This document shows positions 5,338-52,127 of a DNA stretch of 64,000 nucleotides, piece by piece. The notes under the pieces are model-generated. The model did no database searches, had not been told where the DNA came from, and saw only the letters and a program-made list of their open reading frames with translations. The stretch lies in contig DASWWW010000002.1 of assembly GCA_036400935.1 (NCBI GenBank), forward strand, positions 137,529 through 201,528, given 5' to 3'. Numbering within the stretch: the first letter of the stretch is position 1; each line of letters starts with the position of its first letter. The position numbers were made by a program, and so were the translations under genes. The DNA comes from Minisyncoccota bacterium (GTDB taxonomy: Bacteria > Patescibacteriota > Minisyncoccia > Phycocordibacterales > UBA6065).

Positions 5338-5372
5338 AAAAAAAATCCCTGCGCTATTGCGGGGATTTTGCT
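5338..5372 (+). terminator. intrinsic terminator after rnr
   Basis: ATCCCTGC-GCTATT-GCGGGGAT hairpin followed by TTTTGCTT. Confidence 0.5.
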
Positions 5373-5821
5373 TGCCGGTAGACGGTGACGACGGTGTCAT
5401 TATCTACCCGGCCGACTGAACCGAGATTAAAATCGGCCTCAGAAGAGCCTGGCAGGACCTCGATGATGGCGACATTGCCGAAATGCGCCTGCCGATCGCC
5501 GAAATTCTGGGACACGTTGCCGGACAGCTTCCTGCCTCGGTAGCTGGGGAGCTCGAATGCTTCGCCCTCGCATACCTCGCTGAAAGGCACCTGAGATCGG
5601 GGCACGAGCGTCCAGAAGCCCACATCATCCATCTGTATTTGCCGCAAAACCTGAAGTCGTGCGAGCGCCTTCAGAAGCACAGGCATGGACGTGTTAGGCG
5701 GCACTTTGCAGAAGAGGTCGCTGATCGACAGCGGCTTGCCGATATTCGCTTTGAGGACATCGATGATCCGCTGCTCTGGGGCTGGAGGTATAACCACTGA
5801 CGGGGGAGCTGATTGACTCAT
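5354..5821 (-). CDS. hypothetical protein (155 aa) immediately downstream of smc on the same strand; possible winged-helix N-terminus
   Basis: Intact ORF, 98 bp after the smc stop. The N-terminal region IIDVLKANIGKPLSISDLFCKV looks wHTH-like; this is my impression only. Confidence 0.5.
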   Translation of the reverse strand: MSQSAPPSVVIPPAPEQRIIDVLKANIGKPLSISDLFCKVPPNTSMPVLLKALARLQVLRQIQMDDVGFWTLVPRSQVPFSEVCEGEAFELPSYRGRKLSGNVSQNFGDRQAHFGNVAIIEVLPGSSEADFNLGSVGRVDNDTVVTVYRQAKSPQ

Positions 5822-5919
5822 GGTATGGAAAGAAAACAGTTGACCGACTCGGGATTACCTTGCCAGACTACCCCGCCCTGTATTTTTTGCAAGAAAAAAG
5901 CACCCCGACCGGGCGCCTT

Positions 5920-8190
5920 CTATTTTGCCACCGCCAACGCCTCGTTAAACGCGATCGACAGCAGCTTCGAGTATCCTTCGCGGCCCATAGTGACTCCGTA
6001 GAGCACTCCTGCGCGGCCCATGGTCTCTCGGTTGTGGGTGATGACGATGAGCTGCGACGATTTCGCGAGGCCTTCCACCATGTCGCCGTACTTCTTCGAG
6101 TTCGCCTCGTCGAGGGCGGCGTCTGTCTCGTCCAATATGATAAATGGCGGCGGATTGACCTGAGAGATCGCGAACAAAAGCGCGATAGACGTGAGTGCGC
6201 GCTCGCCTCCCGAAAGCATTTCGAGAGCCTTGATCTTCTTGCGCGGCAAATTCACCTGAATGTCGACACCAAGCTCTGTCTCTTCCGGCTCGTCCTCCTC
6301 GCCTCCTGCGCCGATACCCATTTCTGCCATTTCCTCGGGGGAAAGCTGGCGGCGGCGCTTCTTTTCGCGGACGACGGCAAGGGACGCCTCGCCGCCGCCG
6401 AACATGAGCGCGAAATACTCCTTAAACTGATTGTTTATTTTTGAAATTCCTTCTGAAAAAAGCGTATCGAGCTTCACCTCGAGGTCCTTTATGAGAGTTG
6501 TGAGGGAATTCGCCGAATTCTCGAGGTCGAGAAGCTCGCGCGCCAAAAATTCGTCTCGCTCAGTCGTCTCCTTGAACTCCTTCATGACCTCGCCCGGCGA
6601 GACCGCGCCTGAATCCTCGAGGCGAATCTTTATCTTCTCGATATTCTTGCGGCGATCCTCCTGGGCGTGGCGCTCTTCGGCAGGATGCACGGTCGCATCT
6701 GACTCGTACGCGTAGATATCGCGGCCGATCAGTATCGCGCCCTCCTCGACCTCCCTCTTGAAATCCTCTTTCTCAAGGCGAAGCTTCTCCTCGCGCACGC
6801 GCAGGACGCCGAGCTTGCCGCGTATCTCGTTCTCCTCGGCCATGATGCGGAACATCGCCTTTTCGGCGTCGCGAGAGCTGTCTTTCTCCTTCTCGATGCC
6901 CGCGCGCAATGCGCCATAGGCGTCCGACAGCCTCGCCAGCTCGGATTCCTTCTCCTTCGCCTCGGCGTCGGCATCGGTCTTGCGGCTGCGGAGGATCTCT
7001 ATCTCCTTCTCGAGGTCTCCGGCACGATTCTCCGCCTTGGTATTCTTGTTCGACTCGAGGAAAGCCTTGAGGGACGCGCGAATTTTCGCCAAGACGCCTC
7101 GAATAGCGCCCATGTCAGACGAGGTCTCGATATCCGTGGCCAATCCATCTACGTGCGCGACCAACTCCTTTACCTTGGCGTATTCGACAGTCGTAATCTC
7201 GGCCTGAGCGCTCTGCCTTTCTCGGGCAAGCATCCTCTCGAGGCTTCCGATCTCTCCCTCGATGCGGCCGATAGTGCGGGTAATCTCGTCGCGGGACGCG
7301 CGGACTGTCTTCAGGTTCGATTCAAGCTCGATCAGCTCGCTCGACTTTACGTCCTTGTGCTTCGAGTCCTCCAGGACCTTCTTGGCGAGGGCAAGCTCCT
7401 TTTCGAGGCGCTCCAAATCCTGCTTTGGCTGCGCGCTCTCGGTCGCCAACGCCTTTTCCGTGGCGGAAAGGTAGTCGGACTCGCGCCTGAGGTACTCCTT
7501 GTATACGTTGCGCAATTCCTCGCGCAAGGCGATGGTCTTCTCGACCTTCTCCACCTGCTTTTTCAAAAATTTGAGATGAGGCGCGATCTCCTTTCGCAAG
7601 GATTCGACCTTGTCCATATTCTCGCGCGTCTTTACGAGCTTTCGCTCGCTCTCTTCGCGCTTGTACTGGAAGACCTTGAGGCCGAGGGCGTCCTCGATCA
7701 TCTCGCGGCGCTCCTTGATGTTGGCATTCAAAATGCGGTCCGCCTCGCCCTGGGAAATGATGTGGTGTCCTGAGCTGCCGATGTGGGCGCCGGCGAGCAG
7801 TTCGGTGATATCGCGCAAGCGTACGGCCGACCCGTTGATGAAATACTCGGAAAGAGAGTCGCGATGGATGACGCGCTCGATCGTGACCTCGTCGAAGTCG
7901 ATATTAAGGAGTCTTTTGCCATTCTTCAGGCTGTTATCAAAGACGAGCTTTACCGAAGCGCGGTTGCCTCGCGGCGAATTCTCGCCTCCGTTGAAGATGA
8001 GGTCCTCGGTACGCTTTCCGCGCATCGACTTTATGGACTGCTCACCCAGTACGAAGCGGAAAGCCTCGGCGACGTTCGATTTGCCGGAGCCGTTAGGGCC
8101 CACGACCGCCGTTACGGGCGCATTGAATTCGAGATTCGCCTTCTTGGCGAAAGACTTGAAGCCGGTAAGCTCGAGGGATTTCAGATGCAT
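5920..8190 (-). CDS. smc: SMC-family chromosome-segregation ATPase, short form (756 aa) with no recognisable hinge domain
   Basis: N-terminus MHLKSLELTGFKSFAKK...GPNGSGKSNVAEAFRFVLGEQS carries the Walker A. C-terminus LSGGERALTSIALLFAI...ILDETDAALD carries the signature and Walker B. Everything in between is coiled-coil. Confidence 0.8.
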   Translation of the reverse strand: MHLKSLELTGFKSFAKKANLEFNAPVTAVVGPNGSGKSNVAEAFRFVLGEQSIKSMRGKRTEDLIFNGGENSPRGNRASVKLVFDNSLKNGKRLLNIDFDEVTIERVIHRDSLSEYFINGSAVRLRDITELLAGAHIGSSGHHIISQGEADRILNANIKERREMIEDALGLKVFQYKREESERKLVKTRENMDKVESLRKEIAPHLKFLKKQVEKVEKTIALREELRNVYKEYLRRESDYLSATEKALATESAQPKQDLERLEKELALAKKVLEDSKHKDVKSSELIELESNLKTVRASRDEITRTIGRIEGEIGSLERMLARERQSAQAEITTVEYAKVKELVAHVDGLATDIETSSDMGAIRGVLAKIRASLKAFLESNKNTKAENRAGDLEKEIEILRSRKTDADAEAKEKESELARLSDAYGALRAGIEKEKDSSRDAEKAMFRIMAEENEIRGKLGVLRVREEKLRLEKEDFKREVEEGAILIGRDIYAYESDATVHPAEERHAQEDRRKNIEKIKIRLEDSGAVSPGEVMKEFKETTERDEFLARELLDLENSANSLTTLIKDLEVKLDTLFSEGISKINNQFKEYFALMFGGGEASLAVVREKKRRRQLSPEEMAEMGIGAGGEEDEPEETELGVDIQVNLPRKKIKALEMLSGGERALTSIALLFAISQVNPPPFIILDETDAALDEANSKKYGDMVEGLAKSSQLIVITHNRETMGRAGVLYGVTMGREGYSKLLSIAFNEALAVAK

Positions 8191-8258: not shown

Positions 8259-8459
8259 ATGAGTTATTTTAAGTTCTGGCGTAACCTTTTTATCTGGAGC
8301 GGTTTAGCGCTGGCGTCGATCGCTCTCGATATCTGGATAGACTGGATTCCAAGGAAATTCGAGATTGCAGCAATAGTCGTCGGCGTCATCTCCGCGGTCG
8401 CAGTTTGCATATCCGCCATCGGAATGATCGCGTGGGTTTCGAAAAACAAAAAACTATAA
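8259..8459 (+). CDS. small membrane protein (66 aa)
   Basis: Two hydrophobic helices, and a strong terminator follows at 8465-8499. Confidence 0.45.
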   Translation: MSYFKFWRNLFIWSGLALASIALDIWIDWIPRKFEIAAIVVGVISAVAVCISAIGMIAWVSKNKKL

Positions 8460-8464
8460 CGTCA

Positions 8465-8499
8465 CGGCCGGTTCGCGCAAGCGAACCGGCCGTTTTTTA
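8465..8499 (+). terminator. intrinsic terminator
   Basis: CGGCCGGTTCGC-GCAA-GCGAACCGGCCG perfect 12-bp stem followed by TTTTTT. Confidence 0.7.
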
Positions 8500-8521: not shown

Positions 8522-9220
8522 CTACGCCATCCAGCCCTTTGCCTCGAGCGCCTTCAGCGCGGCATTCTGCTCGGCCTCCTGCTTTGACTTGCCTTCGCCC
8601 GTGGCGATCTGATCCTTGCCGATAAGGACGCCGACGGTAAACGACTTGTCATGGTCGGGACCGGCCTCCCTGACGAGCTTGTACGAAGGCGTGATGCCCG
8701 TCTTCTCCTGGGCTTTCTCCTGAAAGAGGCTCTTGGCGTCGACGAGGTTGCCTTTGGCGATCAGCTTGTCTGCGAATACGAGGATATGCTGCTCGATGAA
8801 TGCCTTTGCCTTGTCATAGCCCTGATCGAGGTACAGCGCGCCCGTCACCGCTTCGAAGGTGTTAGCGAGGATGTATTGGCGGGCGCGCCCCGTATCCTTT
8901 GCCTCGCCCTTCGAAAGCAGAAGGTAATCGTTCATAGTGAGGTTTGACGCGACTTCGGCGAGGGTGATCGAGTTTACGAGCGCCGATCGGTACGTAGTGA
9001 GCTCTCCCTCGGGCTTTGTCGGGTACTTTGCGTATAGAAAATTGGTAACGACCAGCTCCAAAACGGCGTCGCCGAGGAACTCGAGGCGCTCGTTGTGCTC
9101 GAACCGGGTGTTCTTGTTCTCGTTTATATACGAACGGTGCGTGAAGGCCTGGCGCAGGAGGTTCTTATCCTTGAACGATATGCCGGCCTTTTCTTCGAAT
9201 TTTGCGAAATTTATATCCAT
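8522..9220 (-). CDS. rnc: ribonuclease III
   Basis: ERLEFLGDAVLELVV RNase III signature, with a dsRBD-like C-terminus. Confidence 0.9.
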   Translation of the reverse strand: MDINFAKFEEKAGISFKDKNLLRQAFTHRSYINENKNTRFEHNERLEFLGDAVLELVVTNFLYAKYPTKPEGELTTYRSALVNSITLAEVASNLTMNDYLLLSKGEAKDTGRARQYILANTFEAVTGALYLDQGYDKAKAFIEQHILVFADKLIAKGNLVDAKSLFQEKAQEKTGITPSYKLVREAGPDHDKSFTVGVLIGKDQIATGEGKSKQEAEQNAALKALEAKGWMA

Positions 9221-9241: not shown

Positions 9242-10141
9242 TTATTTCTTTGGTATGAGTGAGATTGCCTTTGCGATGATCGGGAGCATGTCCTCGTAGA
9301 AGTTGAGGCTCGCTATCTCGTCTGCCCGGAACCACTCGGCCTTGTCGAGGCCACCGGTCTCCTTGAGGGTGAGGGGCTTGTATGCCGCTTCGGCGAGGAA
9401 GTATGTCACCTGCTTGCGGAGCTTGCCCTTCTCTGGGTGCGTCGCCACGTACTCGTTCGAATCGACGGACTCGAGGAGCTTGATATCAATGCCGATCTCC
9501 TCCTTCACCTTGCGCATGGTGCCTTCCTCCACTGTTTCTGTCTCCAAAAGGCTTCCCTTGGAAAGAGTCCAGCGGCCGAAGACGTCGTGCACGAGGGCAA
9601 GATAGATGCGGCCGTCGTGTCGGGCGAACACGACCGCTCCGCCGAGCTTCACGATAGGCATCTTGTCGAAAGGAATGTTGAACTTGTCGTCCTTCTTCTT
9701 TGACACGGCGTCCTTGCCCGGCTCGCCCATCTCCTTGTATACGGATCCGAGCACGCCGTTCACGAACTTGCCCGAATTCTCGCCGCCAAAGCTCTTTGCG
9801 AGCTCGATAGCCTCGTTGATAGCTACCTTTGCAGGCACCTCGCCGCGATCGGCGAACAAAAGCTCGTAGAGGCCCATGCGCAAGACGTTCCTATCGATGA
9901 TGGAGATCTTGTTCAAAGGCCAGTCAGGGGCCGCCTTTGTGATGATCATGTCGATCTCGGGCTGCTTCTTGAGCACCCCTTCGCCAAGCTCCTGCATAAA
10001 GGCAAGATCGCTGTTTCCCGGCGCAAATTCTGCGGCGTCGCGGCCGATAGCATCAGAGAGGATGCTCGAATTTTGGTCGCGGAAATCCCACTCAAAGAGT
10101 GATTGGAGAACAACTGATCTTGCAAGGTGCCTGTTTGCCAT
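9242..10141 (-). CDS. nusB: NusB antitermination-factor domain fused to a C-terminal Nudix hydrolase domain
   Basis: N-terminal half: DRNVLRMGLYELLF...VPAKVAINEAIELAKSFGGENSGKFVNGVLGSV, which is NusB. C-terminal half: GGAVVF...GRWTLSKGSLLETETVEEGTMRKVKEEIGI, which matches the Nudix box GX5EX7REUXEEXGU. Confidence 0.8.
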   Translation of the reverse strand: MANRHLARSVVLQSLFEWDFRDQNSSILSDAIGRDAAEFAPGNSDLAFMQELGEGVLKKQPEIDMIITKAAPDWPLNKISIIDRNVLRMGLYELLFADRGEVPAKVAINEAIELAKSFGGENSGKFVNGVLGSVYKEMGEPGKDAVSKKKDDKFNIPFDKMPIVKLGGAVVFARHDGRIYLALVHDVFGRWTLSKGSLLETETVEEGTMRKVKEEIGIDIKLLESVDSNEYVATHPEKGKLRKQVTYFLAEAAYKPLTLKETGGLDKAEWFRADEIASLNFYEDMLPIIAKAISLIPKK

Positions 10142-36769: not shown

Positions 36770-38038
36770 CTAAAGAACGTCGCCGATAAACGGAACCGAG
36801 AGCCTTCGGCGCACGCCGGGCGGCAGGAATGAGAGGCTCTTCTCGCCCCGCTCCTCCTTTTGGATGGCGCGCAGGCTCGATGCGACGTGGATCAGGTCGC
36901 GCCCGTATTTTTTATTGAGTTGATCGACGGCCTTGAATGCCTCGCCTCGGCTGCGGTCTGCGCCGGCCGCGCCGAACAAGTCCTCCTGGCGGCCAGACGC
37001 GGGCACAAGATTGCACAAGGTCACTCCCGAAGCACGATACACGTGGCCGGGATCGAACAGCTTCCCGAATAGCTTCTTGGCCTCGGCAATGATGATGAAT
37101 GGATCGTCGGTGGCGAGCTGGAGTCTAACCGAGTCGCGCTTGTACCAAAACTCCTTGGTCTTTATGAAGACGGAGAATTCGCGAGCGCACAGGCCCATGC
37201 CGCGCGCCCTGTGGCAGGCGCCCTCTATGTTTTTTGAAAGCTCCGAAAAGATGTAGCCCTCGTCGCTCGAATGCGGATGGAATGAGCGGGTCTTCATGAT
37301 CGATTTCTGCGCCTGGCCCGCATGCTCGCCGACGCGGTTGATCGAAGTGCCGTTGAGCTCGTACCACATCTCGATCTGAAGCTTTGAGAAATGCTCGCGG
37401 ACCCAGTCTGCCGATTTTCGCGCAAAATCGAGGGCCGTGTTGATGCCCAGCTTGCGAAACGAGATAGTCGTAGCCGAGCCGATGCCCCAGACGCTGCCGA
37501 TCGGCGTCCTGTCGAGCAGCTTTTCGACATCGGCCATGGGTAGGATGGTCAGGCCGTTAGGCTTTTGGCTTTTCGATGCCGTCTTTGCCAGGACGCGTGT
37601 CGATGCGAGGCCGAGCGATACGGAAATGCCAAGCTCTCGAGCGATGTCTTTCTTTATCTTTTCCAAAATGGGGCGAGCGGACTCGAGCGAGCCGTCGGCG
37701 GCAGGCGCGAATTCGGGAATATCGGAGAAATCGGCAAAGCACTCGTCTATGGAGTACTCCTCAACCACGTCCGTGTAGCGCCGGACTATATCGAACATGC
37801 GGCGCGAGAAAACGGCATAGGCGTCGTAGTCGGATTCGACGATGCGCACCTGCGGAAACTCCTTTCTGATGCGAAAGACCGGCATGGCGCGGGTAATGCC
37901 GAGCGACTTCGCTTCCTTGGACATGGCCGTGGCGATGCCGCGCTCGAATCCCGTCACGACGGGCTTGCCGCGCAAGGACGGATCCTTGGCAGCCTCGACC
38001 GACGCAAAGAAAGAATCGCCATCGAGGTGCATGATCAT
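36770..38038 (-). CDS. Y-family (UmuC-like) translesion DNA polymerase
   Basis: MIMHLDGDSFFASVE...GKPVVT...YSIDECFADF palm motifs. It resembles UmuC (GKPVVVL, YSIDEAFCDL) more than DinB. There is a 4-bp overlap (ATGA) with the upstream S24 gene. Confidence 0.8.
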   Translation of the reverse strand: MIMHLDGDSFFASVEAAKDPSLRGKPVVTGFERGIATAMSKEAKSLGITRAMPVFRIRKEFPQVRIVESDYDAYAVFSRRMFDIVRRYTDVVEEYSIDECFADFSDIPEFAPAADGSLESARPILEKIKKDIARELGISVSLGLASTRVLAKTASKSQKPNGLTILPMADVEKLLDRTPIGSVWGIGSATTISFRKLGINTALDFARKSADWVREHFSKLQIEMWYELNGTSINRVGEHAGQAQKSIMKTRSFHPHSSDEGYIFSELSKNIEGACHRARGMGLCAREFSVFIKTKEFWYKRDSVRLQLATDDPFIIIAEAKKLFGKLFDPGHVYRASGVTLCNLVPASGRQEDLFGAAGADRSRGEAFKAVDQLNKKYGRDLIHVASSLRAIQKEERGEKSLSFLPPGVRRRLSVPFIGDVL

Positions 38039-38367
38039 ACGAGCTTGCGGATTACGGCCGTGACGACGGCCTCTATGGAAAGCTCCGAGCCGACTGCAAG
38101 ATCCGCGCGAACAGGACCCGCGCCACCAATTCGCGAATCGAACCGGGCCATCCTAAAAGCGCCGTCATGCACGGCAATCACGATATTTCCATCGTGCGGC
38201 GAACGGGATCGGTCGACGATCAGCAAATCGCCGCGGAAAATTCCCTCACCGCGCATCGAATCGCCGGACGCGCGCATCATGAAAGTCGCCTCCTTATTTT
38301 CTATGAGGTATTCGTCGAGAGACATCGTCTCGAGCGCGTCTTCTTCTGCCTGCGTGCGGAATCCCAT
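38035..38367 (-). CDS. UmuD'-like S24 peptidase-domain protein lacking the N-terminal cleavage arm and the catalytic Lys
   Basis: ASGDSMRGEGIFRGDLLIVDRS...DGNIVIAVHDGAFRMARF aligns to UmuD [21 protein letters not shown]...GDIVIAAVDGEFTVKKL. Only about 35 residues lie before the Ser. The start is set at ATG 38367; the ORF track extends to GTG at 38373. Confidence 0.7.
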   Translation of the reverse strand: MGFRTQAEEDALETMSLDEYLIENKEATFMMRASGDSMRGEGIFRGDLLIVDRSRSPHDGNIVIAVHDGAFRMARFDSRIGGAGPVRADLAVGSELSIEAVVTAVIRKLV

Positions 38368-38373
38368 GCACAC

Positions 38374-38402
38374 AGTATAAGTGAACTACAGTTCACTTTC
38401 AA
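38374..38402 (-). promoter_or_regulatory. sigma70-type promoter TTGAAA-17-TATACT for the umuD-like/umuC-like operon; likely leaderless
   Basis: On the coding strand: TTGAAA GTGAACTGTAGTTCACT TATACT GTGC ATG. The ATG at 38367 is 7 nt after the -10 element. Confidence 0.55.
38380..38397. promoter_or_regulatory. Cheo-type SOS box (LexA operator) AGTGAAC-TACA-GTTCACT
   Basis: Perfect palindrome containing GAAC-N4-GTTC, which matches the B. subtilis-type consensus CGAACRNRYGTTCG. It occupies the promoter spacer. Confidence 0.65.
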
Positions 38403-48932: not shown

Positions 48933-51900
48933 CTAGTAATCAAAACTTCCCTTACCATCGAGCTCTACAGCCCCCGTCTTGCATCCGACAAGCATATTCA
49001 GAAACTTATTGGTCGTTTTGTATTTATAGCCAGTGCCCTCTGAAAGGTTCCATGGCTTGAGCATTGCGTCTGAGAACTCTTCCTGAAAACGCCCAAGGGA
49101 CGCCTCGAACCCAGTATCAAACGATATATCGATTGCCCCGCTATAGAATCCAAGCCCTGAAAGCAGAGACTTTGCGCGAGACACCTCCGTTGAACGCGGA
49201 TTCACCGAAACACTGTTGTATTCAGTAAAAGCAGGGCATTCTGATGTCTGGGCGCACTTAATTGAATTTATCTTGAGAAGCGTCGTTCGATAGACATAGC
49301 CAGTCGGCTCAGAGATTCCCCAGATCAAGAGCACCTCGGTCTTATATTTCTTCTGAAAGCGCTTGACGGCTTCGACGTCTGCAGGTGAATACACGCCATC
49401 GACCGAAAGACTTTCACCCTGCGTGTCATTAAGAAACTCTTCGAGCCTCCTAACCTCCGAAGGATCATTCTGGCCCCCATAAGCGACGTATCCCTTCATA
49501 TAGGGCGCGCAAGAACCTTGCGGGACAGATGCGGCGGAACTCTGAAAAAAAAGGTGTGCCCACTGTTTTTTGAGGACATCTGCTTCAGCGGTCCTTCCCA
49601 TAGCAATGAGGTTCGCGACAAGGGACTGCACTGACGATCCGCTCCTATTGTTGCTCGACTGCGCCTGGGAGCCGAATAGGGCAAAGATGGAGAAATGGGG
49701 AGCGGTACACTCGATGCGATTGCCGGCCGTATCAACGTCACAGCTATCGAGCGCACTCCATGCGCCGTTACTGTAGTGGTAAAGCCAGAGGGACGACTCG
49801 CTGATGTTTGATATTTCGCTGTCCGTGTACTCGTACGAAATCGTCACCGGGTGGTCAAACGAGTCGAGGATCGTCGTGCCGTTTATTACCGCCTTTACAT
49901 CGAATACCGTAGCGCCGACTTCGTTTGGTTTAGCGTCAGGGCGCCCAATCATGCCGAGCACGTTGTCGCTCGGCACGGCCTTCACTTGTATGACAAGAGA
50001 CGAGGAGGTCGCCGTAACATTCGCAGGCAGAGACACCGTGAATGTCTTGCCCCCTTCTTGCATGGTAGAGACACCTCCGGAGCTCGACGTTATGCTCGCA
50101 GAAGTAGCCTGTGTCGGCGCCGAAGAATACTCACAGCCCGCCGTCGTGAACGTCGCATCAGTTGAAGTCGCGACATTCCCCGCCGCGTCGCTAGAGACCG
50201 TTGCGTAGTGATAGATCGCACAAGCTGCAAGCGGGGAAAGAGAAACGCTGTGGGAGGTGACGCGCGGCGACGTGTTTGACTCTGGCGTTGTAGAACCGTA
50301 CGCAGAGGTCAACCCGAACGCGACCCTCGTCGAAGCCGCTTCGTTCGTCGCCCACGCGACTCCCGCAGAGCTGCTCGCAGTTGAGGAAGCTGTCACGCTT
50401 GAAATCACCGGCGCGCTTGAATCGGCGGTGGTGAAGCTCCATCCCGTGGCGTTCGTTATGCCCGGGAAGTAATCGTCATCGGCGTCCTTAAATGCGGTCG
50501 AGGGGATCTGAACGTAATATTCAATGCCGTCATCGAGGGAATTCGCAGGATTGATAGTGATGGTATCAGTTCCGCTGCCGCTCACCTGCCCGCTCCCCAC
50601 TGGTATAGTTTCAACGATCGAATTATCAGACGCCTTCTTGATGAGGATGTCTCCGGTACCTACCGTTACCGAGGTGCTCAACGTTATGACTAGATTCGTG
50701 TTTCCGTTGACCCCTACGGCATTGTCGACCGGTGACAGACCTTCTGCGGCAGGATTCTCCGTCGACGCGAGTGTAAAGAGTCCTCCTGCCCCAAAATCTA
50801 CCGCCACGCGCCACGCATCGCCTCCCTGATCACTCATACCCTGGGGAACCTCGTCGCTCAAGCTGCCGTCGTTATCGGAGTCGTACACGAAATAATAGAC
50901 GCCGCCGTCAAGGGTGTCGGGAATATTCATATTTGAGTTCGCGACGTTAAAATCCATGCGAACGAATCCTACGTCGCCCTGCTCCTGCTTCTTCCATTTA
51001 CGCTCAAGAATGCTGTAGCCAGAAGGCGCCCCCGTCGTTGTCCACGACGCCGCGCCACCGTTATCCCCAAAGACGAGAAACTCCAGATCGTCCATGTCCT
51101 CAAAATCGGGCACGAGGTTTGTGCCTTCGTTGACGGCCTCCACCGTGATCACAGTTGTCGAGTTCTGCCCCCTCGACTTTATCTGGCTGAGGTTCGACGC
51201 GTCGTCGCGCCCGATGCCAAACAGGTCGTTGTCATAGGTGCTCGCATCCGCTGCGTCCTTGTCCCACATGAGGTTGCTACCGCTCGCAAGGTAACTTTGC
51301 GCGGTACCCTGATCAAGGCTGAAGCCGTACTTGAGGGCGAGATACGAGTTGATACGCTGCCGCTCGGTGGCCGTTACGAGCCGGTCATAGTAGATAACCT
51401 CCGAAATATTGCCGTCCCAATATTCGTCGCCACGCGAATTGGAGCCTATCTTCACGCTGCCGCTTAGAGACGTGTTTACGTTTCCTCCGCTTCCCTGCAC
51501 GGGAACACTGCCGTTTACTGCGATATACAGGGGGCCGCCATTCACCGCGCCGTATGCGAGGCGAGCAGTACCATAGGGAGTCCAGCTGCCAGTGATCGCT
51601 TCCTGCGAACTGTGCGTGGTGATAAAGACCGACGCGCTGTTCGAGTTGTGCCCAAAATCGAATCCAGCACCTCCACCGAACGTGCCTGCACCGAGGACGT
51701 AACGCCAACCGCCGGAATCGGCAGAGGCGACCACGAAAATAGAACGGTCGCCCGAACCGCTTACGAGGCCCGTATCACTTGCCTGGTATCGGCCATCAGT
51801 GAAATTGAGCGTTGGATTGAAATTGAGACCATTTTCGCTATAGACCGCGCTTCCGGCTGAACGGGTCGCATCGCGATTATTTGCAGACTGGTCCTCCCAT

Positions 51901-52127
51901 GTCTCTATCTGCTCGTTATCAGCTGCCGCATTCCCGCCCGAATCTTTGGCACCGCTGTCGGCCGAGAACCAGAACTCAAGGCCACTTTCCACACCAGCGG
52001 GCCCGGCGGCAAATGCGATAGGCGAAAAAATAGAGCTGATTGCAGCTGTCACCGTTACCGCCAAAAGAAAAAAGCCCCGACGTCTCATTATGGTGAATAG
52101 TATAGCAACCATTGAGGCTTCGGACAA
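48933..52127 (-). CDS. large secreted cell-surface protein (1064 aa): N-terminal LamG/concanavalin-like domain, Ig-like beta domains, two C-terminal peptidoglycan-binding-like domains
   Basis: Signal peptide (probable start MRRRGFFLLAVTVTAAISS at 52088). LamG-like DRLVTATERQRINSYLALKYGFSL. The C-terminal PG_binding-like repeats are DGVYSPADVEAVKRFQKKY... and LSGLGFYSGAIDISFDTGFEASLGRFQEEF... Confidence 0.7.
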   Translation of the reverse strand: MSEASMVAILFTIMRRRGFFLLAVTVTAAISSIFSPIAFAAGPAGVESGLEFWFSADSGAKDSGGNAAADNEQIETWEDQSANNRDATRSAGSAVYSENGLNFNPTLNFTDGRYQASDTGLVSGSGDRSIFVVASADSGGWRYVLGAGTFGGGAGFDFGHNSNSASVFITTHSSQEAITGSWTPYGTARLAYGAVNGGPLYIAVNGSVPVQGSGGNVNTSLSGSVKIGSNSRGDEYWDGNISEVIYYDRLVTATERQRINSYLALKYGFSLDQGTAQSYLASGSNLMWDKDAADASTYDNDLFGIGRDDASNLSQIKSRGQNSTTVITVEAVNEGTNLVPDFEDMDDLEFLVFGDNGGAASWTTTGAPSGYSILERKWKKQEQGDVGFVRMDFNVANSNMNIPDTLDGGVYYFVYDSDNDGSLSDEVPQGMSDQGGDAWRVAVDFGAGGLFTLASTENPAAEGLSPVDNAVGVNGNTNLVITLSTSVTVGTGDILIKKASDNSIVETIPVGSGQVSGSGTDTITINPANSLDDGIEYYVQIPSTAFKDADDDYFPGITNATGWSFTTADSSAPVISSVTASSTASSSAGVAWATNEAASTRVAFGLTSAYGSTTPESNTSPRVTSHSVSLSPLAACAIYHYATVSSDAAGNVATSTDATFTTAGCEYSSAPTQATSASITSSSGGVSTMQEGGKTFTVSLPANVTATSSSLVIQVKAVPSDNVLGMIGRPDAKPNEVGATVFDVKAVINGTTILDSFDHPVTISYEYTDSEISNISESSLWLYHYSNGAWSALDSCDVDTAGNRIECTAPHFSIFALFGSQAQSSNNRSGSSVQSLVANLIAMGRTAEADVLKKQWAHLFFQSSAASVPQGSCAPYMKGYVAYGGQNDPSEVRRLEEFLNDTQGESLSVDGVYSPADVEAVKRFQKKYKTEVLLIWGISEPTGYVYRTTLLKINSIKCAQTSECPAFTEYNSVSVNPRSTEVSRAKSLLSGLGFYSGAIDISFDTGFEASLGRFQEEFSDAMLKPWNLSEGTGYKYKTTNKFLNMLVGCKTGAVELDGKGSFDY

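Follow-up and report, generated by a model that had tools for sequence, protein, structure and literature searches.

What is an SMC-type ATPase without a hinge, the part of SMC proteins that is regarded as defining and essential, through which they dimerise and bind DNA and which has been proposed as a DNA gate? The question is raised by a gene for a protein of 756 amino acids (aa) in a 64,000-nucleotide stretch of contig DASWWW010000002.1 from a Minisyncoccota bacterium; the whole of this stretch is called the window here. An earlier note on this DNA had described the open reading frame (ORF) for this protein at 5920..8190 and a 155-aa ORF at 5354..5821, both on the minus strand and 98 bp apart, and had pointed to SMC motifs at both termini of the larger product, all of which we find as claimed. 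We consider the 756-aa protein to be, probably, the lineage's own Smc, the ATPase of bacterial condensin, with the distal arm and the hinge deleted.

Identity of the 756-aa protein

The protein matches bacterial Smc in sequence, predicted structure, and genomic position. Pfam SMC_N spans residues 2-741 (E value 9e-66), and the top NCBIfam model is TIGR02168, that of bacterial Smc, at 539.8 bits. The head of Bacillus subtilis Smc aligns with that of the 756-aa protein with an E value of 3.8e-84, the alignment reaching through the joint motif, and residues 1-171 align to residues 1-209 of the B. subtilis head. An AlphaFold2 (AF2) model (predicted local distance difference test [pLDDT] 78) has as its best structural match 5xei, which comprises the head, coiled coil, and joint of Pyrococcus yayanosii Smc (TMt 0.72). 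The gene lies in a conserved order of dnaE, rnhB, rpmF, nusB-NUDIX, rnc, and smc, followed by the convergent rnr, rpsP, a KH protein gene, and trmD, and rnc is upstream of smc in 69 of 82 related loci (L003-L005 and 79 of 80 genome loci), which is the classic rnc-smc position. It is on the TIGR02168 score, the B. subtilis head match, the 5xei match, and this gene order that the identification as Smc rests. The main features of the gene, the head, and the upstream neighbor are as follows.

5920..8190, minus strand: smc, coding for the probable hinge-less Smc of 756 aa (ORF, Pfam SMC_N, and TIGR02168)
7678..8190, minus strand: N-terminal half of the head, residues 1-171 (alignment to the B. subtilis Smc head)
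8074..8100, minus strand: Walker A motif GPNGSGKSN, residues 31-39 (invariant in 55 homologues)
5923..6399, minus strand: C-terminal half of the head, residues 598-756 (B. subtilis Smc head alignment and invariant columns)
6109..6216, minus strand: from the signature LSGGE, residues 659-663, to Walker B and D-loop, residues 683-694 (invariant columns)
8522..9220, minus strand: rnc (RNase III), conserved upstream neighbor of smc (Pfam Ribonuclease_3 and dsrm)

The head carries a complete set of ATPase motifs, with R57, Walker A, the Q-loop glutamine Q147, the signature LSGGE (residues 659-663), D687/E688, the D-loop, and the H-loop histidine H719 all invariant across the 55 homologues. The neck (residues 172-220) is conserved at 0.84 to 0.96, and neck and joint stand far above the distal arm (0.4 to 0.6). 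The C-terminal head also has a lineage-specific insertion of about 30 aa (residues 607-638, positions 6277..6372) with no counterpart in the head of B. subtilis Smc; in this insertion, a conserved basic stretch with the consensus REKKRKR precedes an acidic one (EEEETE). Its pLDDT is below 50 at residues 613-616 and 625-637 of the AF2 model, and it might serve as an additional loop for DNA contact or for regulation.

Distribution of the short form

The short length is a property of a whole lineage. An identical protein (100%) is present on nine contigs from independent assemblies, the named source being a Candidatus Paceibacterota metagenome-assembled genome. Among the 120 90%-identity clusters listed, which are 58 to 92% identical to the protein, lengths are 706 to 786 aa, with all but two at 741 to 786 aa, and the SMC hinge family (SMC_hinge, PF06470) is in none of them. 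In a search of 1.84 billion 50%-identity cluster representatives, the best 150 are 41 to 58% identical, nearly all are 700 to 782 aa long, and most align in one full-length stretch; no full-length Smc is among these 150. A scan of one genome per species found relatives in at least 545 GTDB species genomes, and the best 80 of these at least 545 matches cover residues 1-756, with a few beginning at residue 3 or 4 or ending at 750. The longest smc ORFs from the 82 loci have a median length of 757 aa. Since a length of about 750 aa is conserved in hundreds of genomes, the short Smc is real and lineage-wide, and is neither an assembly error nor a fragment; the proposal of a genuine SMC-type ATPase without a hinge is borne out by a length kept in at least 545 species genomes and in the best 150 representatives.

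The named relatives are all Paceibacterota or Parcubacteria, and the titles of the best 80 genome matches name Paceibacterota, Parcubacteria, Taylorbacteria, Kaiserbacteria, and Minisyncoccia; in the NCBI taxonomy, Paceibacterota is the phylum Minisyncoccota. Many records are titled 'uncultured Candidatus Saccharibacteria', presumably as generic submitter labels. Near-complete single contigs of the relatives are 0.5 to 0.7 Mb in size.

Absence of a hinge and a zinc hook

A Pfam scan of the full 756-aa protein gives no match to PF06470 at an E value of 1 or below, in agreement with the lack of hinge motifs reported in the earlier note. When the arm (residues 215-525) of 12 members was scanned with Pfam at E values up to 10, the SMC hinge, the Rad50 zinc hook, and the MukB hinge were not among the families listed, which amounted to weak coiled-coil noise. 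A profile of the same arm region searched against all of the PDB (E values up to 10) found no hinge structure, and all that it matched were coiled coils of a generic kind, tetherin among them. Cysteine is absent from the window protein, its number in the 55 aligned members is zero to two, and CxxC is in none of these, so that the absence of a zinc-hook motif noted by eye is correct. A cryptic hinge is ruled out by the Pfam and PDB profile searches, and the two blocks that are collinear with canonical Smc, described below, are just 46 residues apart.

A register-matched deletion in the arm

The arm and its parts are arranged as follows.

7183..7677, minus strand: N-terminal arm strand, residues 172-336, with the neck, the joint level, and breaks at 277-278 and 331-336 (AF2 and TIGR02168)
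7051..7182, minus strand: tip hairpin in the place of the hinge, residues 337-380 (between two TIGR02168-collinear blocks)
6400..7050, minus strand: C-terminal arm strand, residues 381-597, with a polar break at 381-392 (AF2 and TIGR02168)
6826..6897, minus strand: conserved arm island IEKEKDSSRDAEKAMFRIMAEENE, residues 432-455 (conservation blocks)
6598..6699, minus strand: joint insert of the C-terminal strand, residues 498-531 (AF2 breaks, indels, and alignment)

TIGR02168 positions 2-331 correspond collinearly to residues 3-333, and positions 839-1179 to residues 380-746, so that 46 residues stand in for about 500 profile positions, those of the distal arm and hinge. The two ends of the gap are matched: in functional studies of B. 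subtilis mini-Smc constructs, such as 1-438/733-1186 and 1-398/773-1186, the paired positions sum to 1171 throughout (PMC5344682), and here 331 and 839 sum to 1170, which puts the cuts in the two strands opposite each other.

The coiled coil of the AF2 model comprises about 425 residues (172-597), made of helices 172-276 and 279-330 on the N-terminal strand and 384-497, 507-526, and 532-597 on the C-terminal strand, with breaks at 277-278, 331-336, 357-359, 382-383, 498-506, and 527-531. The continuous coiled coil of roughly 550 residues envisaged in the earlier note is thus shorter in the model, and broken in six places. Between the strands, the tip hairpin consists of a helix (337-351), a variable loop (352-361), and a second helix (362-380) that contains the invariant F377.

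Several lines of evidence predict the apex of the arm at about residue 357. These are the boundaries of the TIGR02168 blocks; compensating indels, as in P0142 (272x14 with 424x18) and P0145 (325x9 with 379x13) and also in P0126, P0143, and P0144, the paired deletions in divergent members having i+j of about 710 to 720; the loop at 352-361, where many members have uncompensated indels of up to 10 aa; and dips in pLDDT of the AF2 model that lie opposite each other in this register (271-280 and 431-440; 321-340 and 381-390). An apex at 382-383, the midpoint of residues 172-597 in the AF2 model, was rejected on the block boundaries, indels, and pLDDT dips.

About 34 extra residues on the C-terminal strand (498-531) constitute a joint insert, which contains a motif aligning with GTVNLGSI of B. 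subtilis (head-joint constructs 5xg3 and 3zgx), and there is an indel hot spot at residue 497. Indels are confined mainly to the tip and joint loops, and arm length is tightly conserved. The N-terminal strand (172-333) has about 165 residues, or about 180 with the tip helix, from which we estimate an arm of about 26 nm (some 180 residues per strand with a rise of 0.148 nm per residue), compared to about 50 nm in B. subtilis.

No part of the arm is better conserved than IEKEKDSSRDAEKAMFRIMAEQNE (residues 432-455), which is hydrophilic and near-invariant in the members shown, with glutamine as the family consensus at residue 453; conservation is 0.77 to 0.9 in the 10-residue blocks spanning 431-460, compared to 0.4 to 0.6 in the blocks just before. 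This island lies opposite N-terminal strand residues 276-283 in a conserved double discontinuity, and a second discontinuity pairs 331-336 with 381-392. The island may bind a partner or form an elbow-like break in the arm.

What might take the place of the hinge

Conserved hydrophobic positions are denser in the tip helices (13 of 34) than anywhere else in the arm (48 of 191). F377 is invariant across the 55 homologues, and positions V340, L343, V347, I363, L367, I370, L374, and L378 are hydrophobic in 88% or more of the sequences. In B. subtilis, Smc is inactive once hinge dimerisation is lost, and the fold of the dimerisation domain is irrelevant, as a chimera with the Rad50 zinc hook grows normally (PMC5344682); because this chimera is viable, a small helical cap is a plausible substitute for the hinge. 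Shortened Smc arms also function there at particular lengths (PMC5344682).

We suggest that an ancestor of a very large Paceibacteria clade may have lost the distal half of the arm and the hinge by deletion at register-matched points, and that a helix-loop-helix of 46 residues would now cap the arm. ATP would engage the heads as in canonical Smc, and two protomers would be joined at the far end through their hydrophobic tip hairpins, plausibly as a four-helix bundle, with arm-arm zipping also holding them together in the hinge's stead. A kleisin (ScpA) encoded elsewhere would close the ring at the well-conserved neck and cap, and the resulting complex would organize a chromosome of well under 1 Mb, with a function in loop extrusion or segregation.

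We note several points that weigh against this account. The TIGR02168 score of 539.8 bits narrowly misses the equivalog cut-off of 567.35, a shortfall that fits with the absence of about 500 profile positions; judged from the sequence, the protein appears to descend from, and to work like, bacterial Smc, with no hinge and a score just short of the equivalog level. Mean-field direct coupling analysis of 336 sequences for the register of the coiled coil was dominated by gap columns. Neither ScpA nor ScpB was found in the window or in 87 related loci (1.5 Mb), with no match below an E value of about 0.5 for queries first checked against PDB entries, and a paralogue of a second, canonical Smc is a further reading, which we consider below. 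Dimerisation through the tip hairpins would have as its basis a hydrophobic enrichment that is suggestive (one-sided Fisher P = 0.087).

These last figures bear most directly on the strongest alternative, in which the protein is the same Smc with no tip dimer. The protomers would then meet only through their ATP-engaged heads, with or without a kleisin bridge, and each arm would be a free rod with another role, for instance that of a spacer or lever, or of a site where a partner binds. The tip is poorly conserved overall (0.4 to 0.57), its enrichment is not significant, and the island at 432-455 rather than the tip is the best-conserved part of the arm, all of which speak for this alternative. 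However, B. subtilis Smc needs dimerisation and accepts any dimerisation fold (PMC5344682), the arm length is tightly kept with indels mainly in the tip and joint loops, and the tip has the invariant F377 and eight further hydrophobic positions. We regard an arrangement with no tip dimer as a substantial minority possibility, at about one chance in a few.

A possible specialized paralogue, and the search for ScpAB

A less probable explanation is that the 756-aa protein is a specialized SMC paralogue, with a canonical, hinge-bearing Smc encoded elsewhere in the genome. The DNA read covers the 64 kb of the window genome and 10-kb flanks in the relatives, which leaves room for a second gene, and the NCBI pipeline names the protein only 'AAA family ATPase'. 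However, it is the short gene that occupies the canonical rnc-smc position in 69 of the 82 loci, there is no full-length protein among the best 150 representative relatives, and no second SMC-like ORF lies within 10 kb of smc in any related locus. We therefore hold the paralogue to be improbable, and return to the short protein as the lineage's own Smc.

For that protein the use of a kleisin is assumed, because ScpA and ScpB were not found in the DNA searched. The earlier note's observation that scpA and scpB are not adjacent is accurate, and extends to the whole window. Clustering of the neighboring genes of the 82 loci revealed no conserved gene of unknown function beside smc; the recurrent clusters are known housekeeping genes or antisense shadow ORFs of these.

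The downstream 155-aa ORF

The 155-aa ORF had been proposed as a co-transcribed winged-helix protein and a novel partner of the ATPase, and this raises the question of whether the two genes form a module. The ORF and the intervening hairpin are located as follows.

5354..5821, minus strand: 155-aa orphan ORF, outside the Smc system (word-indexed search and related loci)
5889..5921, minus strand: terminator-like hairpin and U-run directly 3' of smc (RNA fold)

A two-gene module with an ScpB-like winged-helix partner is suggested by the shared strand and the 98-bp gap, by the prediction of three short N-terminal helices, and by a weak match of residues 17-77 to Pfam PF08100, which belongs to the winged-helix clan; this match, with an E value of 0.003, falls short of the family cut-off. 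Against this, a word-indexed search of a 5.8-billion-sequence database found only the ORF's own sequence, and there is no homologue anywhere in the 82 related loci. The slot between smc and rnr is variable even among close relatives, with an unrelated cysteine-rich 105-aa ORF in one whose Smc is 92% identical, three unrelated ORFs in one at 80% identity, and no ORF in L005, at 60% identity. The 155-aa ORF has no Pfam or NCBIfam match to ScpB, is missed by a profile built from five solved ScpB sequences, and matches nothing in PADLOC or NCBIfam. Its AF2 model, computed without an alignment, has a pLDDT of 40 and a fold that is not interpretable. The winged-helix assignment is tentative, the PF08100 match being its basis.

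The two genes are also separated by an 11-bp hairpin that starts within the smc stop codon and is followed by a U-run (-16.1 kcal/mol, z -3.17, with none of 200 shuffles as stable), although a consensus scan did not list the hairpin at 5889..5921. Because of this hairpin and U-run, co-transcription of smc and the 155-aa ORF is unproven. We conclude that the 155-aa ORF is an orphan specific to the strain, lies in an intergenic slot of variable content, and has no conserved partner role, and there is very little probability that it is an ScpB-like component of a two-gene system. A second hairpin with a U-run is present 3' of the 155-aa ORF (5342..5369, minus strand, -11.9 kcal/mol), before the convergent rnr; as it lies between the two genes, it may terminate both.

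Rad50-, RecN-, and defense-type ATPases

SMC-like ATPases without an SMC hinge are also found in the Rad50/SbcC and RecN families and in defense systems (Wadjet, Lamassu, and MADS), and the PADLOC mad3 model of MADS defense matches the N-terminal head at 190.8 bits, with weak Rad50 and RecN matches. However, TIGR02168 scores about 540 bits, compared to at most 70 bits for the Rad50 models and 45.6 for RecN TIGR00634 (cut-off 407.85), and MukB models also score far lower, in accord with the SMC-type rather than RecN- or SbcC-type assignment in the earlier note. The joint and neck are of the Smc type, there is no CxxC, and neither an Mre11/SbcD gene nor MukEF/JetAB-type partners or other defense genes are at the locus, where all the genes around smc, such as rnc, nusB-nudix, rnr, and rpsP, have housekeeping functions. 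The MukB-type PF04310 match has an E value of only 0.11, and the JetC model gives 31 bits confined to the signature motif. As no other MADS genes are nearby, the mad3 match is probably generic SMC-head similarity, and a defense system was rejected for lack of any system context. We give a Rad50-, RecN-, or defense-type identity slightly less credence still than the two-gene module, and the Rad50-like system once suggested is not supported, there being no zinc hook, no Mre11/SbcD neighbor, and only weak Rad50 scores.

The reading of the gene as a product of misassembly, or as a pseudogene cut down from an ordinary smc of 1,180 aa, has the short length alone in its favor and is next to inconceivable given the identical protein from nine contigs of independent assemblies, the same architecture with an intact reading frame in hundreds of genomes, and the register-matched deletion.

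Other features of the window

Upstream of rnc and smc is a gene for a NusB-NUDIX fusion protein (299 aa; 9242..10141, minus strand), and the same fusion is present in 72 of the 82 loci. Between rnc and smc, a hydrophobic 66-aa ORF (8259..8459) is encoded on the plus strand and is followed by a strong GC-rich 13-bp terminator-like hairpin (8464..8493); relatives have other small ORFs in this slot. Farther away, a UmuD/LexA-like Peptidase_S24 protein (110 aa) is paired with a Y-family polymerase (IMS, 422 aa) at about 36770..38380 on the minus strand. An ORF of about 1,050 aa (48933..52127, minus strand), whose called start differs from the start of the longest ORF, has DUF8202, Big_5, and a faint PG_binding_1 match, and is probably a cell-surface protein.

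Comparison with known SMC systems

With the bacterial Smc of Smc-ScpAB, as in B. subtilis, the short form shares the sequence of the head with all of its ATPase motifs, the neck and the joint, the collinearity of the arm with TIGR02168 (positions 2-331 and 839-1179), and the rnc-smc gene order. It differs in lacking the hinge, in having an arm of about 180 rather than 344 residues per strand capped by a 46-residue hairpin, in the 30-aa basic/acidic insertion in the C-terminal head, in the score just under the equivalog cut-off, and in that ScpAB was not seen with it in the window and 87 loci.

Among engineered proteins, the closest analogues are Mini-Smc and Smc(Zh) (Burmann et al. 2017, PMC5344682), which likewise have register-matched arm shortening and a hinge swapped for an unrelated small dimerisation element, and which can support growth. 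In contrast, the Paceibacteria form is natural and lineage-wide, and its cap is a cysteine-free helical hairpin and not a zinc hook. Its arm, at about 165 to 185 aa, is shorter than the shortest functional window of the truncation screen (253 to 267 aa), but is near a minor natural mode of arm length at 163 aa (Burmann et al. 2017, PMC5344682).

Natural hinge-less SMCs are almost unknown, and the only other report found is from 2025 and concerns marine Actinobacteria (PMC12153180). Sussfeld et al. (2025, PMC12153180) describe a hinge-less SMC cluster from ocean metagenomes that was assigned to Actinomycetes and, in their genome screen, had no regular smc co-occurring with it. That cluster shares with the Paceibacteria family an SMC-type head, a hinge-free coiled coil, the lack of CXXC, and an abundant environmental clade; it belongs to Actinomycetes rather than to Paceibacteria of the Candidate Phyla Radiation (CPR), and the two are compared here at the level of description. 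No deletion map, tip element, or gene context is given for it (PMC12153180). The hinge-less Smc is apparently undescribed for CPR bacteria, with no report in the literature searched, whose coverage excludes most subscription journals.

RecN, too, joins a head of the SMC superfamily to a short antiparallel coiled coil and lacks both a hinge and a zinc hook. It dimerises through the far end of its coiled coil, and in mechanism this is the closest precedent for a tip dimer of the kind proposed. RecN differs in its head subtype, in having no joint, and in gene context, and its model scores far below the cut-off on the 756-aa protein. Rad50/SbcC and the archaeal ASRP/ClsN also consist of a head and a coiled coil without an SMC hinge and dimerise through a CxxC zinc hook (PMC9389158), whereas the hinge-less Smc family has no cysteine at the apex and no Mre11/SbcD neighbor.

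Implications for chromosome organization in Paceibacteria

The public annotation of these proteins as 'AAA family ATPase' needs correcting. The short Smc is a natural test of the periodic arm-length rule, and its small size should suit it to structural work. Loss of the hinge and half of the arm across hundreds of CPR genomes likewise allows a test, set up by nature, of which SMC parts chromosome organization requires. It is possible, though we put it forward only tentatively and as less likely than not to hold in full, that the Paceibacteria as a class organize their chromosomes with a minimal condensin, having a hinge-less arm of about 26 nm and a cysteine-free four-helix tip dimer, with ScpAB perhaps lost or heavily altered. 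If this is true, the core SMC motor would have no need of the hinge in nature, and mechanistic work would have a pared-down SMC at its disposal.

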